Source of the DNA: a virus
Lineage: Duplodnaviria; Heunggongvirae; Uroviricota; Caudoviricetes
DNA length: 25,906 nt
Virus record (IMG/VR): IMGVR_UViG_2740892258_000020
Direction: 5' to 3' (one strand)
The notes under the pieces were generated by a model that was not told the origin of the DNA, did no database searches, and saw only the letters and a program-made list of their open reading frames with translations. The translations under genes and the position numbers were made by a program. This document shows, one piece after another, positions 3,934 through 25,906 of the stretch (its first letter is position 1; every line of letters starts with the position of its first letter).

Positions 3934-3977
3934 TTGAAATAACGTGAGTTATGCATTTATTATTACCTTTGCGGTAA
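3934..3977 (+). promoter_or_regulatory. sigma70-like promoter (TTGAAA-17/18-TATTAT) overlapped at the -10/+1 region by operator palindrome site 2 (ATTACC-TTTGC-GGTAA, 3962..3977)
   Basis: Good -35 and -10 hexamers with correct spacing; palindrome begins inside the -10. Points toward the Bro-N gene. Confidence 0.5.
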
Positions 3978-4069
3978 ATTTACATCGCACTCCTCTTGTG
4001 CCATAGTAATCGGGCACTGGAAAAATCCAGTGCCGGGATTGGCGTCCCGGATTACTAAAAGGCGCATTC

Positions 4070-4979: not shown

Positions 4980-5023
4980 TTGGCGATGTGATGTAGATTC
5001 GCGTAATATTACCTTACGGGTAA
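4980..5023 (+). promoter_or_regulatory. sigma70-like promoter (TTGGCG-18-TAATAT) overlapped by operator palindrome site 3 (ATTACC-TTACG-GGTAA, 5008..5023)
   Basis: Same promoter/operator geometry as at 3934..3977; about 60 nt upstream of the 210-aa gene. Confidence 0.45.
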
Positions 5024-5082
5024 GAAAGCGTTTTTAATCTTCCCTTCAAAACGCGTCCTGTAGCCAAACATGGGAGGACGAA

Positions 5083-5980: not shown

Positions 5981-5998
5981 AGGCCGCGAAAGCGGCCT
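5981..5998. terminator. bidirectional hairpin AGGCCGC-GAAA-GCGGCCT; T-run on the minus-strand side terminates the 283-aa gene
   Basis: 7-bp stem with GAAA loop; on the minus strand followed by TGTTTTTAAC. Confidence 0.65.
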
Positions 5999-6004
5999 GT
6001 TTGA

Positions 6005-6857: not shown

Positions 6858-9800
6858 CTATTTCATCTGCTCTTCAACTTTATTTAGTAACGGTGATATT
6901 GCCCACAGGTTCTGAAAAGGTAGCATTTTACGGACCGCGTGGGTTTGCTGGCTGTCAAATTCTCCGTTAAGTACACCATTCGCAACCGTCGCGGCATCAC
7001 CGCCAAGATCAAAGGTAGGACCAAGTAAAGCACCAATAGCATTACGACTCTGAAACCTTGATACCGGAGGCGCACCAAACATCGCGCCAAGACCAAACCT
7101 ACCGCCGCTTATGTTCTCAACGGTATTCAGCGGCTCAGAGAGCCAGCCAAGCATTCCGCCCCGGTCGATCCCCTCTTTCACAAGGTTATTCCAGCTGTAG
7201 TCAATATCGCGACCGCTTAACTTCTGTTTCATCATATAGACCATTGAGCCAAGCGCAATCGTGCCAAGCGCACCAAGATAGAATGCAGCATCGCCCTGCT
7301 GGATACCAGATACCAGCACCCTGTTATGCTGTGCGAAGATAAACGTTTTGAACTGCGTGATCATCTTCCAGCCTTCTTTACTAAAAAACAGCGGTGTATC
7401 ACCTACGCCAGGCGTTACAATCACTGAGTCTACATCTTTCAGCACTGCAGACTGGAAAATCTCTCTAGCGAAACGGTCATCCCACAGATGACTATGCCCG
7501 GTTAACAGCCCGTCCATATCCTCTCCGTGCTTCCCGAATTGCTCCCCGATTCGGCGCAGAACATCTTCATTGATGCCGACCTGTGCCATCTTCCGCATTT
7601 CACTTTTGGAGAGCGTGCCACCAGCAGAAACTTGGCGAGCCGCGTCAAGTATCCTCGACTGCACTATCATCCCGGACCATGATTTAAGTGCGCTGTTCCA
7701 CTGATTCATCAGCGTCCAGTTACCGAATTTCTGCGTCATCCAGTTCAGGCCTCGCTCAGCGGCGCTTCTCCGGCTATATGGGTCAGTAAGATCCGCTATA
7801 GCCTTTGTACGCGTAGACAGGACATAATCAAGCCCAACGGCCATTTCTCGCAAATCCCTGGTTGCAATTTTCACTGAGTCCATATTTTTAAGCATGCTTA
7901 CCATTGGTCCGAGAGATTTTCTCAGGCCATGCTGCATCATCGGTCGCATCAGATCAGTTGCAGCGGAGACAGTCATTCCACCAAGCAAACGGAGGAAGTT
8001 AATATTCCTAGCAACTCGCCCGGCACGAACAAAGAAACTGCGTGGATCTTGAGGTGCACCGTAAGTACCAAGCAGTCGATCACGCATAGCCGTAATATCC
8101 CTAATATCAGCCTCCCGTTGCTTCTCAAGAACTGCACGTCGTTTAGGCGTTTTAGCCTCTTTTATTAGCCGGGTATATTCCTCACTAACCTGACGGATTT
8201 GCTCCCCCATATCTTTACGGCCAAACTGCGCAGTCAGCTCAATTTCTGGTGCCACCTGCCGGAGATAACTTTCCATGATGTAGTTAACATCTGATTCAAG
8301 AAAATCTTCTATACGCTCATCAGGAATAAGCAGCGTTCTGCTTTTAGTGAAACCAGCCCGACCAACGAGTCTCTCTGGGATAATATCGGCTGGTACAAGC
8401 CCGGAAGGTGCACCTATTATTTTATTCACGATCTCGTCAGCAGCGTCCTCTGCTTCCTCTCGGGATAGAGGCTCCATCTGCTTCAGTGCTCGTTCGCGGC
8501 TTGCATTCAGCCTTGTGGTTGAATTTGCCCGTTTTTGCAGTCGGCGAAGCTCAGAACGATATTTCCGTGGATTATCCAGCAACTCCATATGGCGCTGATA
8601 GACAGGAAGCTCACTCTTTGCCTGCGCTATATCATCAAGGCGTGTTTTAAGGTCAGAGCTTTCTTTCATCATTCTTGCCTGAAGTTTTTCTGATGAAGTC
8701 TCGGCCAACTCTTTTTCTATTCTTGTAAGACGCGCCTGTGTGTCAGTCTCCTGAGATATAAGCTTATTTCGTTTATCCAGTTCTTCCATGAGTAGAATTT
8801 TTTTACCAGACCATTTCTCCGCTTCAGCGATTTCACTAGCGAGAGCATCAGCGCGCGGTGCCGATTCCTCTGCAGTTTTTAGCAATGAATTTATCCTTTC
8901 AATTCGCTGACCTGCCTTGTCAGCACCTTTGGCACTAATCCCTTGTATCCAGTTGGCAATTCGCCCTCTGAATTCAGTGCGGTCGGAAAGTATCTTATCG
9001 AACTTATAAATGCGGGGAAGATAACTTTTCGCCGTCACGACATCGATATCCTCAGGAAGGATCCCCAGTTCCTGCATACGGGCTTTTGTGGTCTCGAAAA
9101 TGGGGCGGATTCTGGCAGCTGCTTGTGAAACCTCAGGAATATCACTCTGATCACCACGGCGCATAGCCATGCCAACAGCTTCATTGAAATCAATAAAGTT
9201 CATCCTCTTCACGCCGCGGGCGCTAACAGATTTGCTGTACTGCTGGTAAGCATCACGAGTGGCTTCCATCTGCTTATAAAGCATGGCGTCGTATTGCTTA
9301 ATCTTAGTCTCGACTGCCGTAAACGTAGCCAACCCCTCATCATTTTTGGCGAAGAAATAGTTATTTTCGGCAAGCTGCTGGTTAATCTGACGGGAGACAA
9401 GAGATGGTGATTGCGCCAAGCGGCCAGCAGGAGTGACACTCAACGTTTTGTTAGCAAGTCCAAGTCCAGCGAGCTGTTCCTGATCGAGTGTGGTATTGAA
9501 AACCTGAGCTGCACCAATGCTTTGAGGAGAATCCATACCTCGCAAATGATTACCTACTGAGTTAACCACTGCCTCGCGCGCGCCAGGTCCAGCAAGTAGC
9601 TGTGCACCAGCACCAAGGATCCCACCAACGAGAGCATCAACAACAACGTTCGATACGCTCTCCATCGGTGAGCGAGCTTCCTGAGTGGCCTGTAATGCGG
9701 CCTCTGAAGCAACACTGCCAGCAGCATTCGCCAGGGCAAAACGCCCGGCTGTTTCTGCAATACGACCGCCACGAACGACAGCGCCGAACGGAATAAACAT

Positions 9801-20023: not shown

Positions 20024-20316
20024 TCCTGTTCACTGGCCTCTTTGGCCATCTTCAAATACTGTTCAGGACAATGCGCCATAACGCGCTGAAACAGTTCCAG
20101 CGCCAGATTGCGTTGCCCCTCATTAAATGCCATTGCCATAGCGTCCATCGGTGAGATAGCGGAAAACACACGGCCTTTCTCCAGCACCGACCAGACAACG
20201 CGACGCCCCTGTTCACTGCTCATGACAAAGCGAATGTCATCAATTTCACGCTGTGCCATGTCACGTTGCTTACGGGCGTTTTCTTCTTTCAGTTGATCGT
20301 CTTCGTAATCTGTCAT
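20020..20316 (-). CDS. small acidic protein (98 aa) between portal and scaffold
   Basis: ORF with ATGA-type overlaps to the portal stop and the scaffold start; function unknown. Confidence 0.5.
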   Translation of the reverse strand: MTDYEDDQLKEENARKQRDMAQREIDDIRFVMSSEQGRRVVWSVLEKGRVFSAISPMDAMAMAFNEGQRNLALELFQRVMAHCPEQYLKMAKEASEQE

Positions 20317-22281: not shown

Positions 22282-22318
22282 TTGACATTTAACGCGTTAA
22301 TTATTACCTTTCAGGTAA
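22282..22318 (+). promoter_or_regulatory. TTGACA -35-like hexamer followed by operator palindrome site 4 (ATTACC-TTTCA-GGTAA, 22303..22318); possible plus-strand promoter for the tRNA/moron unit
   Basis: Consensus TTGACA at 22282..22287 with the palindrome centred where a -10 would be; the -10 match itself is poor. Confidence 0.4.
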
Positions 22319-22650
22319 CCAAAGGGCTCATTCTGGTTACTAACCTGACTGGCTTGTCGTTAAATTAAACAGGTGGAGTGAGCTTTTATTTTGAGCAGTA
22401 CGGCGTATGGCACATGCGCCGATAGCGGTCTGGATACGTTTAAGGGGCACCCTCCCTTGCTCGGGCAAACGAACCAGGTAGCCGGAATGTGCAAGTCGAG
22501 CGGTTTTATTCCGCGCACGGGGATTCACCATCCCGGCGATTCGGTGTGACGCCTCGGAAGAGACGAGGGTACAACGATGAGAGCATTTATGGAGCCGCGA
22601 CAAAGTGTGGCGCCTTAACAGGCTAAGTGCTCTCAGCGTTGTGGCATTAG

Positions 22651-22727
22651 CTCAGTTGGACAGAGCAACCGCCTTCTAAGCGGTTGGTCGCAGGTTCGAA
22701 TCCTGCATGCCACGCCAGAATCACGCC
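22651..22727 (+). tRNA. tRNA-Arg, anticodon UCU (reads AGA), phage-encoded
   Basis: Full cloverleaf: acceptor GTGGCAT/ATGCCAC, D-arm GCTC-AGTTGGACA-GAGC, anticodon stem ACCGC/GCGGT with loop CTTCTAA, T-arm GCAGG-TTCGAAT-CCTGC, discriminator G and encoded CCA. Similar to but distinct from host argU as I recall it. Confidence 0.9.
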
Positions 22728-22760
22728 TAAGGACCGTGATGCCAGAAGTTCCAGGTGCTT

Positions 22761-22804
22761 GGCGGTGATGGTTTCCCTTGAAGGACTATCACCGCCCTTT
22801 TTAC
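22761..22804 (+). terminator. terminator-like hairpin (9-bp stem GGCGGTGAT/ATCACCGCC, large loop) followed by CTTTTTA, downstream of the tRNA
   Basis: Perfect inverted repeat and T-run about 35 nt after the tRNA 3-prime end. Confidence 0.5.
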
Positions 22805-22880
22805 AGCAGGACGCCATTGCGATGACTTCATGCTGTAAACCCGTACAGCCACGGAAGGCATAACTCATTGCTTCCAGTTC

Positions 22881-22904
22881 GCCCGGTTCGCCGGGCATTT
22901 TTTT
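22881..22904 (+). terminator. strong intrinsic terminator GCCCGG-UUCG-CCGGGC followed by 7 U, 12 nt upstream of the 140-aa gene start
   Basis: Perfect 6-bp GC stem, UUCG tetraloop, TTTTTTT run. Confidence 0.7.
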
Positions 22905-22915
22905 AAGGTGAGATC

Positions 22916-23338
22916 ATGAAAACAATTGATATGTTGGCTAAGTATCTAAATGAATGGCCATTAAAATATTCTCGTATCGTTCAGGCTGAAGACTGCGTTT
23001 TTTATGGCGTTTTTGCTGGTAATGAAATGCATTACGAAGTAATTCAGAGTGAGGGACTGGCCGGGTTAACGCTTAGCGATGACCATGGAATAGGAGTTAC
23101 TTGCCATGACTGGATTTCAGCGCAGAAAACTGAAATGGAAAAAGGCAATGTGTTTGATATTTCTCGCGCTGTATACGCCAAAGAAAAAAGTGATGATGAT
23201 TACATGCGCGAAAACTTATACAACATGAAGTTACAATGCCTGGCTGAAGTGCTTAGTAAAAGATCTTTACTTGATGTGGTTGGTGCTGAGCAGGACGCCA
23301 AGGCAATCAACGCCGCATTCGATAAAATAACCTTCTAA
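22916..23338 (+). CDS. hypothetical moron protein (140 aa), opposite strand to the flanking terminase and portal genes
   Basis: ATG with AAGGTGAG RBS; AT-rich; followed by terminator at 23361..23385; no domain recognised. Confidence 0.65.
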   Translation: MKTIDMLAKYLNEWPLKYSRIVQAEDCVFYGVFAGNEMHYEVIQSEGLAGLTLSDDHGIGVTCHDWISAQKTEMEKGNVFDISRAVYAKEKSDDDYMRENLYNMKLQCLAEVLSKRSLLDVVGAEQDAKAINAAFDKITF

Positions 23339-23360
23339 CGCCGTGACATGTCACAATCAG

Positions 23361-23385
23361 CCCGCCGATTCGCGGGCTTTTTTAT
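23361..23385 (+). terminator. rho-independent terminator AGCCCGCCGATTCGCGGGCT followed by TTTTTTAT
   Basis: GC-rich stem and T-run downstream of the 140-aa gene; overlaps the 3-prime end of the convergent large-terminase gene. Confidence 0.6.
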
Positions 23386-24857
23386 GCAAAAGGATCATAG
23401 TCTGTGATGGCTTTGCCTTGCTGGTTCTGCTGCCCGGGAATTCGCAGACGCTTCGACACAGGGAACGCAAACGTCAGCAGTAGCGCATCGCCTTTACCAG
23501 GAGAACGCCCAAGTCGCTCTTTGATATCTTCCTTCGGTTCGATAACGATTTTACCGTCCACGCGAACTTTGTACTCTGCCGTCGACAGGTCGTCCGCTGT
23601 TTCCTGGTCATCCAGCATGCCGCCGAGCCTCAGCCATGTCTTGCATGAGTTGAACATCTCCCCACGCTTGTTGAGCATCTGCGGGTCAGTAGACGCGCCA
23701 CCGAACGGAACAAGTTGCCATGTACGACCCCAGCCGTCACCGATTGACTTCAAACCGGTTCCGTAACCGAAGTCGATGAACACCGCGTCAGCCTGATACT
23801 GGTCTTCAAAGTCAGCGATACGCTTCGCCATAATCAGATCGTCGGTAGTCTTGTTGCCAGTCCACAGCACCTTACTGTGTAGCCCCTGCCGCAGGTATAT
23901 CACCGCGTCATCAACGCCTGAATATGCCGGGTCAACACCGATTATCACCGGAGCATGTGCCACCTGCGCAGCGGTTACCACCCGTTTCATTGCCTCGTCA
24001 GTAAGACCGGTAGGGATAAACTGCAATTCAGATGCATCAGGGAATATGCCACGCACACGGATTTTAACGAAGTCGCTATCTTCCCCATAGTCATCAACCC
24101 ATTTCTGCAACTGCTGTTTGTTGGTGCCTTCCACCGTCCTGCTGTCAATCTGCGCAGTTTTCCAGCGGTGTTTGTATTTGCGGAAACATTCACGGAAACG
24201 CCCGGTGTTACGTGTAGGGTTTCCGAAAGCCACCCAGATAATCTCAGTGTCTTCGTCCGTTAGCGCACCCTCGGCAACTTCCCACACCAGATCCGCAATG
24301 TTCGACGCTTCATCAAATACCACGATGATGCGTTTACGCTCGTTGTGTAGTCCGGCGAATGCCTCAGTGTTGTGCTCAGACCAGGGGATTGCGTCAGCTC
24401 GCCACCGCTTGTCGTGCCCAGGGTCATTGCTGTACATCGCGGTAGCGGTACAGGTAAACCAGTCTTTCGTGATAGCAAGGTTTGACCACTTGATAATTTC
24501 CGGCCAGGTCTTCGTTCGTAGCTGGTTGTCGGTGTTGGCGGTCACCACGACCTTACAATCCTCGCAAGTGGACATGCCCCAGTTGATCAGCATTGAGATG
24601 AATGCGGATTTACCAATACCGTGACCAGAAGCACGTGCCAGCATAAGCGGCTGATATCGCGTCTCTGGATTCTGCAGGTGATCACGTATCTCTCGGAACG
24701 CATCGGCCTGCCACTGACGTGGACCGGTGGCATGTGCCAGTTCAGTACCCTCTTCCCCCCACGGGAACGCATAGAGGGCATAGCCAAGCGGATCGTGAGT
24801 GAACCCTGCAATATCCTCGATTAACTGCTCTTCAGGAGATAACGCTGTATCTGTCAC
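23382..24857 (-). CDS. terminase large subunit (491 aa)
   Basis: Walker A-like ARASGHGIGKS, Walker B-like IIVVFDEAS, and a C-terminal nuclease-like region (VIIGVDPAYSG...VFIDFGYG); 4-nt overlap with the small-subunit gene. Confidence 0.9.
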   Translation of the reverse strand: MTDTALSPEEQLIEDIAGFTHDPLGYALYAFPWGEEGTELAHATGPRQWQADAFREIRDHLQNPETRYQPLMLARASGHGIGKSAFISMLINWGMSTCEDCKVVVTANTDNQLRTKTWPEIIKWSNLAITKDWFTCTATAMYSNDPGHDKRWRADAIPWSEHNTEAFAGLHNERKRIIVVFDEASNIADLVWEVAEGALTDEDTEIIWVAFGNPTRNTGRFRECFRKYKHRWKTAQIDSRTVEGTNKQQLQKWVDDYGEDSDFVKIRVRGIFPDASELQFIPTGLTDEAMKRVVTAAQVAHAPVIIGVDPAYSGVDDAVIYLRQGLHSKVLWTGNKTTDDLIMAKRIADFEDQYQADAVFIDFGYGTGLKSIGDGWGRTWQLVPFGGASTDPQMLNKRGEMFNSCKTWLRLGGMLDDQETADDLSTAEYKVRVDGKIVIEPKEDIKERLGRSPGKGDALLLTFAFPVSKRLRIPGQQNQQGKAITDYDPFA

Positions 24858-25450
24858 TGATTGCCATCCTGGCGTTCTTTCAGTCTCTTCCTGGCTGCCG
24901 CTATGCGATCAGCAATTGTCACATTCACATTAACATCCAGGCGTTCTTTGAATGCGTTGACGTCGACGTGCTTACCAATCAGTTCGAGGTTCTTCACCTT
25001 GTCAGGCCATTTAATTTTTTTGAGGATTGTCTCTATCGAATCCTCGTTCATGTTCATGATGGTCGATGACAGATCAAAGCCACTAAGCGTAGTGCGCCAG
25101 ATTTTCGGCCACTCGCGGATTGGCTTAAGGCTCCCATCGTCGTTGAGGATGTCGATCACGTCCATCTGGTCGATCTCCACCAGGCGCATGAGAACGTAAT
25201 CAGCACTGACGCGCATTCGTTTGTTGCGCTCTTCCATCAGCTCGGCAATCCGTTTTTGAATGCGTTCATCGCGCATCATGAGACTGGCTTTAACTGCCGC
25301 TGTATTTGGGGAGAATCCTGCGTTAATCGCTGCCTGAGTCTGGTTTTCAGGCGTTTTGATGTATGACTGGCAATAAGCCTCCTGCATTGCTGTTAGTGGC
25401 TTAAATTGCGTTGATTTGCGTTTATAGGCTTTAGGTTCAGCAGGCATCAT
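24854..25450 (-). CDS. terminase small subunit (198 aa from ATG at 25450; ORF extends in frame to 25546)
   Basis: Immediately upstream of and overlapping the large terminase; region TAMQEAYCQSYIKTPENQTQAAINAGFSPNTAAVKASLMM matches the small-terminase pattern (conserved AA..AG.S..A..A motif). The upstream in-frame extension is low-complexity and contains palindromic repeats, so the shorter start is preferred. Confidence 0.75.
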   Translation of the reverse strand: MMPAEPKAYKRKSTQFKPLTAMQEAYCQSYIKTPENQTQAAINAGFSPNTAAVKASLMMRDERIQKRIAELMEERNKRMRVSADYVLMRLVEIDQMDVIDILNDDGSLKPIREWPKIWRTTLSGFDLSSTIMNMNEDSIETILKKIKWPDKVKNLELIGKHVDVNAFKERLDVNVNVTIADRIAAARKRLKERQDGNQ

Positions 25451-25466
25451 AACCACCGTGGTAATA

Positions 25467-25483
25467 GTTACCGTTGTGGTAAT
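25467..25483. promoter_or_regulatory. operator palindrome site 5 (GTTACC-GTTGT-GGTAAT) within a tandem array of GGTAAT/TTACC half-sites upstream of the small-terminase gene
   Basis: GTGGTAATAGTTACCGTTGTGGTAATAGTACC (25458..25489) contains TTACC-N5-GGTAA flanked by further GGTAAT and TACC half-sites. Confidence 0.45.
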
Positions 25484-25567
25484 AGTACCATGCAAAATAA
25501 AGCCGCCATAGTTGGCGGCAGTATTCAAAACCATCAAATTCATCATGCATAACCCACTCGTGACATG

Positions 25568-25906
25568 TCACAATATTAATTTCGTTTCATGCCAGCCTTT
25601 GGTCACCCAGCATTGCGAGTCACCATTACACGGGCATGAATTCACAGGAACTCTCTCGCCGCACTTACCGCAACGTTTTCTGCTGATCGATTTTATACGC
25701 CCGTGCACGCGAGCATCATCCTGGCGGATAAGTAACGCAATATACTCACCAAATTCGTAAGGCGCACGCCCGGGGCGACGCGTGGCACAGTTACGCTCCA
25801 GCATTTCAATTTCCTGAGCATCAAGCACAATCTCCAGTTTACGCACACCAGATGCAGCTTGTCTGGCTCTCTGAGCGGCTTTGCGCTCTGCTGCTGATTT
25901 AGCCAT
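25568..25906 (-). CDS. Cys-rich small protein (112 aa), possible zinc-binding protein; ATG is the last three bases of the window
   Basis: Basic, helical N-terminal half and C-terminal cluster CGKCGERVPVNSCPCNGDSQC (CxxC-x8-CxC). Upstream region is outside the window. Confidence 0.55.
   Translation of the reverse strand: MAKSAAERKAAQRARQAASGVRKLEIVLDAQEIEMLERNCATRRPGRAPYEFGEYIALLIRQDDARVHGRIKSISRKRCGKCGERVPVNSCPCNGDSQCWVTKGWHETKLIL

Follow-up and report, generated by a model that had tools for sequence, protein, structure and literature searches.

The window analysed here, 25,906 nucleotides (nt) of the IMG/VR virus record IMGVR_UViG_2740892258_000020, contains two exact copies of a 16-bp repeat, CGTGACATGTCACAAT, whose core, GTGACATGTCAC, is a perfect 12-bp palindrome. 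Comparison of phage sequences indicates that this repeat belongs to the gene of a Cys-rich protein of 112 residues rather than to the terminase genes enclosed by the two copies. The explanation that we favor is that the palindrome is the operator of this protein, which is predicted to adopt a ribbon-helix-helix (RHH) fold, and that the bound protein serves as a roadblock or boundary for transcription; as a whole, we assign this explanation a probability of about 0.6. Its first component, that the adjacent RHH protein has the palindrome as its operator, is very likely correct. The second component, in which the bound protein acts on transcription at the unit boundaries of Uetakevirus genomes, as a roadblock or a termination aid, and may feed back on its own mRNA, is considerably more tentative. 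The three elements on which the argument depends are as follows.

25568–25906, - strand: gene of the 112-residue protein (PHROG 536; phiV10 gp55, epsilon15 gp49, N15 gp46)
25560–25571, no strand: site A, copy 2 of the palindrome, which holds the TGA stop of the 112-residue protein gene
23343–23354, no strand: site B, copy 1 of the palindrome, 4 nt past the stop of a 140-residue open reading frame (ORF; +) and 4 nt before a terminator stem

The repeat pair had been noted in a reading of the window's letters (the original prediction), which offered it as a regulator-binding site, a recombination site for exchanging the terminase cassette, or a packaging-related signal. Its description of the pair is accurate. 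The 16-mer occurs exactly twice in the window, at 23342–23357 and 25559–25574, both on the + strand. Viewed on the - strand, copy 1 lies 27 nt beyond the stop of the large terminase gene (terL), and copy 2 is located between the 112-residue protein gene, whose stop (25570–25568, - strand) falls within it, and the small terminase gene (terS). With the pattern given beforehand, none of 100 dinucleotide shuffles matched the observed count of CGTGACATGTCACAAT. Some direct 16-mer repeat appeared in 23 of 300 Markov-1 random windows, and none of these held a 12-bp palindrome, in agreement with the view that the pair is unlikely to have arisen by chance. The real strength of the observation lies in its conservation among relatives. 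No copy of the motif was found in 109 kb of the Escherichia coli IHE3034 chromosome outside the prophage (two 50-kb pieces and 9 kb of prophage flank), and therefore it is not a host-wide repeat, the outcome that the original prediction had named as counting against it.

Linkage of the palindrome to the 112-residue protein gene

Among 80 close relatives in IMG/VR, the 12-mer is present in 78 and both copies in 51. Site A occupies the same position relative to the stop codon in 75 of the 80, and site B is kept after terL in 56, as well as in epsilon15, phiV10, Tyrion, and a Klebsiella phage. The expectation that related phages carry the 16-mer at their terminase boundaries is thus borne out in part: the conserved portion is the 12-mer, the four additional flanking bases are common to this lineage alone, and outside the close relatives the motif follows the 112-residue protein gene, not the terminase.

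A species-level set was assembled from 33 loci, one genome per species, with protein identities of 40–81%. The motif GTGAC-NN-GTCAC overlaps the stop codon, starting 3 nt before the stop's end, at 20 of these 33 loci; it lies at most 50 nt from the stop at 24 and within ±10 kb at 32. Altogether, 50 copies were counted in 611,652 nt, against 0.58 expected. All 50 have a spacer of 2, none being found with spacers of 0, 1, or 3–7, and a control with 59 permuted arms gave a mean of 0.75 copies with a maximum of 4. No enrichment of the half-site itself was seen.

The same linkage is observed in N15, Klebsiella phages, and ZF40, in which the gene after the homologue is not a terminase. In Klebsiella ST11-OXA245phi3.2, the motif is positioned at the homologue's stop and a UmuD-like moron with a LexA box comes next, while in Pectobacterium ZF40 it lies 2 nt after the stop of gp22, with NinB as the next gene. 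Gene 46 of N15 and the homologue in Klebsiella Kpn74 share the stop-overlapping site GTGACTGGTCAC. Vibrio phage K303, whose protein is 31% identical, carries three copies in 36 kb. Distant members of the family, found through P0261, P0263, and P0294 in viral contigs of 42% or ~60% GC, have the sites GTGACCTGTCAC, GTGACCGGTCAC, or GTGACTGGTCAC placed -3, +29, or -38 relative to the stop, or ~1 kb away; P0270 as the query gave no viral loci. In the reverse direction, 120 viral stretches were picked by the 14-mer TGTGACATGTCACA alone, and a family member was found in 32 of them, with the motif overlapping the stop in 20 of these. The PHROG 536 gene and its site travel together into N15 (a cos phage), P2-like prophages, ZF40, and lambdoid prophages, and each genome carries one to three further copies of the palindrome. 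These relationships suggest that the gene and the site form a compact module, transferred among temperate phages that otherwise differ greatly. Since the palindrome is inherited together with the Cys-rich gene, as seen in the species-level loci, the distant members, and the reverse test, the regulator-binding reading is well supported.

Several further copies were recorded. The three copies in N15, at 28550, 33237, and 39269, comprise the gene 46 stop, an intergenic position between gene 33 and the antirepressor operon, and a position inside repA (gene 37). The Yersinia phage vB_YenM_42.18 (L086, P2-like) lacks a site where the gene stops, and carries a perfect copy together with a one-mismatch one, GTGACATGGCAC, 3.4 kb downstream at 8648 and 8681, 33 bp apart. 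The same one-mismatch variant exists in the window:

20253–20264, no strand: one-mismatch copy GTGCCATGTCAC, inside a 98-residue ORF after the portal gene

This copy is present in phiV10 too and absent from epsilon15, and is possibly a weak site or a chance occurrence.

The predicted protein and its putative operator

A profile search for the 112-residue protein yielded 233 clusters at 50% identity, mostly of 105–135 residues. The homologues carry the name "hypothetical protein", and no experimental basis was found for the PHROG 536 label "transcriptional regulator". None of 30 members matched a Pfam family even at E ≤ 10, no significant sequence homology to solved structures was detected, and a Foldseek search against viral structures returned just a fragment of the same protein. 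The AlphaFold2 model, calculated with a 30-sequence alignment (predicted local distance difference test, pLDDT, 83), starts with a helix, continues with two helices that match the RHH pair and then with a long helix, and ends in a Cys-rich region. This arrangement corresponds to the β-α-α fold of ~45 residues of the RHH (Arc/MetJ/CopG) superfamily, with the β-strand ahead of the helices assigned only in a low-confidence single-sequence model (pLDDT 43). The best structural matches are RHH proteins, namely repressors and antitoxins such as Arc, Mnt, CopG, MetJ, TacA, and ParD. Conserved features include a basic stretch (K9, Q12, R13, and R15), "PY..EYI..LI" in the second helix, and four cysteines (C79, C82, C91, and C99). 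The prediction is accordingly an RHH fold with a Cys-rich region C-terminal to it.

Across clades, the arms of the site are invariant, and the central dinucleotide shifts along with the predicted β-strand sequence. The center is mostly AT with the strand RKLE(I/L)VL, GC in five of five sites with NEIRARL (Yersinia), TG/CA with TRRDWVL (the N15 clade, including every one of the three N15 copies), and AC and GC with QELRLKV (Vibrio). Such covariation is the pattern expected if an RHH dimer reads the palindrome center by its ribbon.

From the site–gene linkage, the enrichment, the spacer specificity, and the predicted fold, we infer the following mechanism. The 112-residue protein would bind GTGACATGTCAC as an RHH dimer, in which the two-stranded β-ribbon would read the palindrome center and the conserved basic N-terminal helix (K9, Q12, R13, and R15) would read the GTGAC arms, which do not vary. 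The cysteines of the C-terminus are a probable zinc-binding site. The bound protein may then function as a roadblock or insulator for elongating RNA polymerase, thereby reinforcing the borders of the early, packaging, moron, and structural units. Autoregulation would also be possible, in the way that LacI acts at O3, given that one of the sites spans the stop codon of the protein's gene.

Placement of the sites and alternative explanations

The window is a phiV10/epsilon15-like (Uetakevirus) prophage, showing 95–97% identity to phiV10-type Uetakeviruses and 100% identity to the prophage integrated beside guaA in E. coli IHE3034 and avian pathogenic E. coli (APEC) O18. On the - strand, the 112-residue protein gene is followed by terS and terL (23382–24857), and a + strand island contains tRNA-Arg(tct) (22641–22717) and the 140-residue ORF. 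The elements adjoining the two sites are as follows.

25437–25550, - strand: remnant ORF between site A and the terminator, 37 codons here
25494–25519, - strand: terminator-like hairpin, GCCGCCAACTATGGCGGC then TTTATTTT, 40 nt downstream of site A; the epsilon15 record annotates a terminator at the same place
23359–23384, + strand: intrinsic terminator, AGCCCGCCGATTCGCGGGCT then TTTTTT, 4 nt after site B
22916–23338, + strand: 140-residue moron ORF (PHROG 4846, uncharacterised), one of six unrelated cassettes abutting site B

Epsilon15, phiV10, and Tyrion each possess three sites: site A at the stop of the RHH gene, which ends the early operon; site B past terL, where a moron on the opposite strand ends; and site C at the end of the long structural operon. 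Every one of these lies 0–27 nt after an ORF stop and 0–22 nt before a terminator hairpin. The two copies in the window conform to this layout, with the ORF stop, palindrome, and terminator arranged in that order on the strand of the unit that ends there. The hairpin at 25494–25519 closes the early operon ahead of terS, and the terminator at 23359–23384, located between the moron and the terL stop, ends the + strand moron. Site C has been lost from this prophage: the terminator aggccgctttcgcggcc, as in phiV10 and Tyrion, is found at ~5981–6003, and CAGTGATCAAAC (~5990–6003) stands in the palindrome's place, where the tail module differs. A terminator-like hairpin lies at most 60 nt from 38 of 67 motif copies, as compared with 19% of random positions. 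The layout does not hold everywhere: one site in a Serratia prophage is situated between the scaffold/protease gene and the capsid gene.

In lambdoid prophages, the motif occurs within two unrelated early-region genes, PHROG 2479 and a "...LLGDCDMSQ..." family. Six divergent PHROG 2479 genes read it as C-D-M-S with identical codons, which argues for selection at the DNA level. The intragenic copies are at the following loci and positions: L100, 232; L103, 4164; L104, 3890; L105, 2039; L108, 3487; and L109, 1353; together with L207, 4755; L209, 3380; and L178, 6515. Both lambdoid families read the motif as C-D-M-S throughout, with the same codons although protein identity is ~30%. As RNA, the palindrome folds weakly (-1.2 kcal/mol, not more stable than shuffled sequences), which likewise favors a role at the DNA level. 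An intrinsic terminator or RNA element was rejected on account of this weak fold, the neighboring hairpins being separate elements.

Several observations weigh against the operator and roadblock explanation. Approximately 43% of the copies have no nearby terminator, and many copies lie inside genes in lambdoid prophages and N15, including N15 repA; this intragenic and dispersed distribution fits a DNA-organizing role as well as a roadblock. The covariation between the center and the β-strand has a few one-base exceptions (L102, L107, and L114). Many of the motif-bearing viral stretches in the reverse test showed no gene in the few kilobases examined. Finally, the literature search found no papers on the protein or on the 12-mers in a bacterial or phage context.

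Other regulatory elements in the genome bear on how its units begin. The epsilon15 record annotates repressor operators (ATTACC-N5-GGTAAT) ahead of terS, the portal unit, and the tail-fibre gene, and the window counterparts of these "repressor" protein_bind features are at 25449–25483 and 22303–22319. In the window, repressor-operator-like palindromes of the form ATTACC-N5-GGTAA(T) are found at 25449–25465, 25467–25483, 22303–22319, and 2512–2528, and also at 3962–3978 and 5008–5024; two immediately precede terS, and one precedes the portal unit. Apart from the 16-bp pair, the window has a single direct repeat of at least 16 nt, TATTACCTTTCAGGTAA at 2511 and 22302, which is also repressor-operator-like. 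This arrangement suggests that each late unit has its own repressor-controlled promoter. With operators before the units and palindromes with terminators at their ends, the genome would consist of units started from repressor-controlled promoters, several of which end in a palindrome and a terminator. Two annotations nearby deserve comment. The RefSeq start of terS (24854–25546, - strand) is at 25528, upstream of the terminator at 25519–25494, and the Terminase_2 domain of its product begins ~50 residues inside this start; the ATG pair at 25450/25447, preceded by GGTGG and overlapping an operator-like site, appears to be the more plausible start. The tRNA-Arg(tct) gene (+) overlaps the 3' part of an opposite-strand 83-residue ORF (22647–22898, - strand; PHROG 4647, phiV10p04), and one of the two is probably not expressed as annotated.

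The DNA adjoining the sites is mosaic. Among the 56 close relatives that keep site B, two sequence classes precede it and six unrelated classes follow it; five of the latter each bring a different gene on the opposite strand, which in four cases ends 4 nt from the palindrome, and one lacks a moron. Beyond site A, the 75 relatives contain either a 70-residue gene, intact in 21, or its 8-codon deletion scar, which in most reads M-H-D-E-F-D-G-F-stop and which a 1-nt deletion in the window extends to 37 codons. In other genera, LexA-box morons or terminators follow site A. Mosaic breakpoints therefore do fall at the sites, as the original prediction had envisaged, with sharp junctions for DNA other than the terminase genes. 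The terS–terL identity to the window tracks that of the RHH gene in 90 of 90 loci, and no foreign terminase cassette was seen between the sites at these loci; the proposed exchange of that cassette is thus not supported. Insertions and deletions therefore concentrate at the palindromes, which do not delimit an exchangeable terminase cassette.

The inserts themselves showed additional features. The 70-residue gene (MPKIRYDLEDMRDN...FYDEFDGL) lies between site A and the terminator, an intact example being L009 4357–4569. The 8-codon ORF was considered as a conserved leader peptide with synonymous variation and rejected as such, being the deletion scar of this gene, which ends ...YDEFDGL. A similar scar (MKYEFDGF or MKDEFDRF) is present on the other strand beside site B in moron-less relatives and epsilon15. 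In several genera, a LexA-box promoter (TACTGT-N8-ACAGTA) and a UmuD-like gene are inserted directly after the RHH gene or the palindrome: just after site A in L092, L093, L098, L099, and L085, and after the gene stop in L105, L108, and L109.

The sharpness of these junctions, at which similarity breaks 0–4 nt from the palindrome, raises the alternative that the palindrome is itself a recombination site or hot spot for swapping gene cassettes between phages. The class counts at both sites and the LexA-box morons of other genera are in line with this idea, as is the loss of the third Uetakevirus site exactly where the tail module of this prophage differs. Nevertheless, the sites have no associated recombinase, replacement of the terminase cassette between them is never observed, and the intragenic copies are kept with fixed codons where there is no junction. 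Operon ends tolerate moron insertion in any case, and a conserved site beside variable DNA would look alike. We therefore regard a recombination function as improbable. An integron-like attC element was also rejected; the site is a perfect 12-bp palindrome, occurring once per junction, and the prophage annotation includes no integron integrase. Packaging was suggested by the position of the repeats around terS–terL and by the phiV10 GenBank record, which begins inside copy 2. That start is arbitrary, being the base after the last gene, and the idea that the phiV10 genome ends at the palindrome was accordingly rejected. A pac or cos signal would co-vary with and adjoin its terminase genes, whereas this motif follows the RHH gene into N15, P2-like prophages, ZF40, and lambdoid prophages with unrelated terminases, often kilobases away from them. 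A packaging signal is thus excluded for practical purposes, as is a chance repeat, in view of the conservation and enrichment.

The remaining alternatives concern what binds the sites and with what effect. Site A might be a promoter-proximal operator of the late (terminase) operon or a Q-like antitermination site, with the protein activating a promoter or modifying RNA polymerase for terminator read-through. The gene is the last early gene ahead of terS, a promoter-like GTGACA-18-CATGAT (a weak match, at site A only) is followed by the terminator 40 nt downstream as in lambda PR'-tR', and one K303 copy lies 19 nt before terS. However, no -10 element is conserved at a fixed distance from the palindrome, on which ground a late-activator site was rejected. 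The candidate -10 falls inside the gene that is intact in 21 of 75 relatives, and the arrangement is not conserved elsewhere. Moreover, the late units have their own repressor-operator promoters downstream, and read-through at site B and at the late-operon end would give antisense RNA only. Since the promoter-like match is neither conserved nor free of an overlapping gene in relatives, and ZF40 and N15 encode their own Q genes beside this gene, we consider activation or antitermination doubtful. A different purpose for the same protein at the same sites would be architectural, as for MatP at matS: the sites would be bound, and perhaps bridged via the Cys-rich domain, to organize or insulate the phage DNA or to disturb the host MatP/MukBEF. 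This would agree with arms equal to those of the host matS and with sites that are few, dispersed, and partly intragenic. In contrast, the spacer is always 2 and never 3, the model contains neither a four-helix bundle nor a coiled coil, and the MatP domains PF06303 and PF17414 gave no Pfam match in 30 family members (E ≤ 10). An hhalign comparison of the family with MatP was not significant (probability 0.1%), the MatP homologue search having given only near-identical sequences and thus no useful MatP profile. The family also occurs in viral contigs of 57–63% GC. Taken together, an architectural purpose seems rather unlikely. Binding by a host protein, MatP or SlmA, instead of the phage protein is far less probable. 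It could account for the matS-like arms and for the resemblance of the outer GTGA/TCAC to the 12-bp SlmA site GTGAGTACTCAC, but the spacer is unlike that of matS, positions 5 and 8 are unlike the SlmA site, the 109 kb of host DNA holds no copies, and the linkage to the phage gene is strict across hosts.

Implications and comparison with known systems

The operator explanation proposes a concrete DNA target for a widespread phage family of 233 clusters, which has no Pfam family and no literature that we could find, and which databases name just "hypothetical" or "transcriptional regulator". It would also explain a conserved landmark of epsilon15/phiV10-type genomes; phages of this type serve as reporter phages for E. 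coli O157 and commonly occur as prophages in extraintestinal pathogenic E. coli (ExPEC) such as IHE3034. For a putative operator, positions within the stop codon of its regulator, at the ends of operons, and inside genes are unusual. Should the sites indeed act as boundaries or insulators, this would show how a phage with no known late activator (no Q homologue was found) or polymerase separates its transcription units, and would also explain the build-up of morons at those points.

The half-sites invite comparison with the host chromosome organizer. The matS consensus, GTGACRNYGTCAC, is a 13-bp site, GTGAC-RNY-GTCAC, with a 3-bp spacer (PMC6907758). The phage site has identical arms and a spacer one base shorter (2 versus 3). 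MatP consists of a four-helix bundle, an RHH domain, and a coiled coil, whereas the phage protein has 112 residues and a Cys-rich C-terminus in place of the bundle and coiled coil. Furthermore, the module is phage-borne, with one site fused to the stop codon of the protein's own gene. The identity of the half-sites raises the question of mimicry of, or competition with, the host organizer, and cross-talk with host MatP/MukBEF is conceivable. At its broadest, the comparison evokes a portable "mini-MatP" module of proteobacterial temperate phages, composed of an RHH/Cys-rich protein of 105–135 residues and GTGAC-N2-GTCAC at its stop, whose two to four sites would partition the genome into insulated units by roadblocking RNA polymerase, bridging DNA, or both, and would as a by-product mark exchange points for modules and morons; we view this generalization as speculative and rather improbable. 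Separately, GC-rich relatives contain a 13-bp GTGAC-N3-GTCAC (GTGACACCGTCAC, GTGACCGCGTCAC) recurring at conserved positions, ~710–820 nt upstream of the gene stop in L130, L132, L137, L149, and L156, and ~7–8 kb upstream in L132, L135, L143, L144, and L155. Its spacing is matS-like, and it may be a coding coincidence.

Other known systems resemble the proposed one in different respects. In lambda, the Q gene is likewise immediately upstream of its site (qut/PR'-tR'), followed by a terminator and the late genes. The phage site described here is not tied to a promoter, the 112-residue protein showed no match to a Pfam Q family, and its gene coexists with Q in ZF40 and N15. The RHH centromere-binding proteins (ParG, omega, and the pCXC100 ParB) also have sites beside their genes. 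In contrast to these, the present gene has no adjacent ParA partner, each of its sites is a lone palindrome and not an array, and the carriers are mostly integrated prophages, although N15 and K303 carry ParA genes elsewhere in their genomes. Among roadblock repressors, LacI at O3 provides a model for both feedback and a block to read-through, as this operator too covers the end of the regulator's own coding sequence. Bound there, at the 3' end of lacI, LacI reportedly acts as a roadblock that leads to truncated mRNA and SsrA tagging. LacI belongs to an unrelated protein family, and the phage sites, being dispersed, would act together as boundaries and not as an auxiliary operator. The closest parallel in protein type is with the RHH repressors (Arc, Mnt, CopG, and MetJ) and antitoxins (TacA and ParD), which similarly pair a small RHH protein with a short palindrome encoded beside its gene. 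In phage and plasmid RHH repressors, the operators are found upstream of the gene, where they overlap its promoter. The site described here, in contrast, lies in the stop codon or adjacent to it, at the gene's 3' end, and other copies occur at operon ends or within genes; the protein also carries an additional Cys-rich domain and lacks a toxin partner. The pairing of an RHH protein with a palindromic operator is an already known kind of system. What is new here is the family itself, predicted to combine an RHH domain with a Cys-rich C-terminus, together with a site fused to its own stop codon, the placement of further sites at operon ends and within genes, and half-sites like those of matS.

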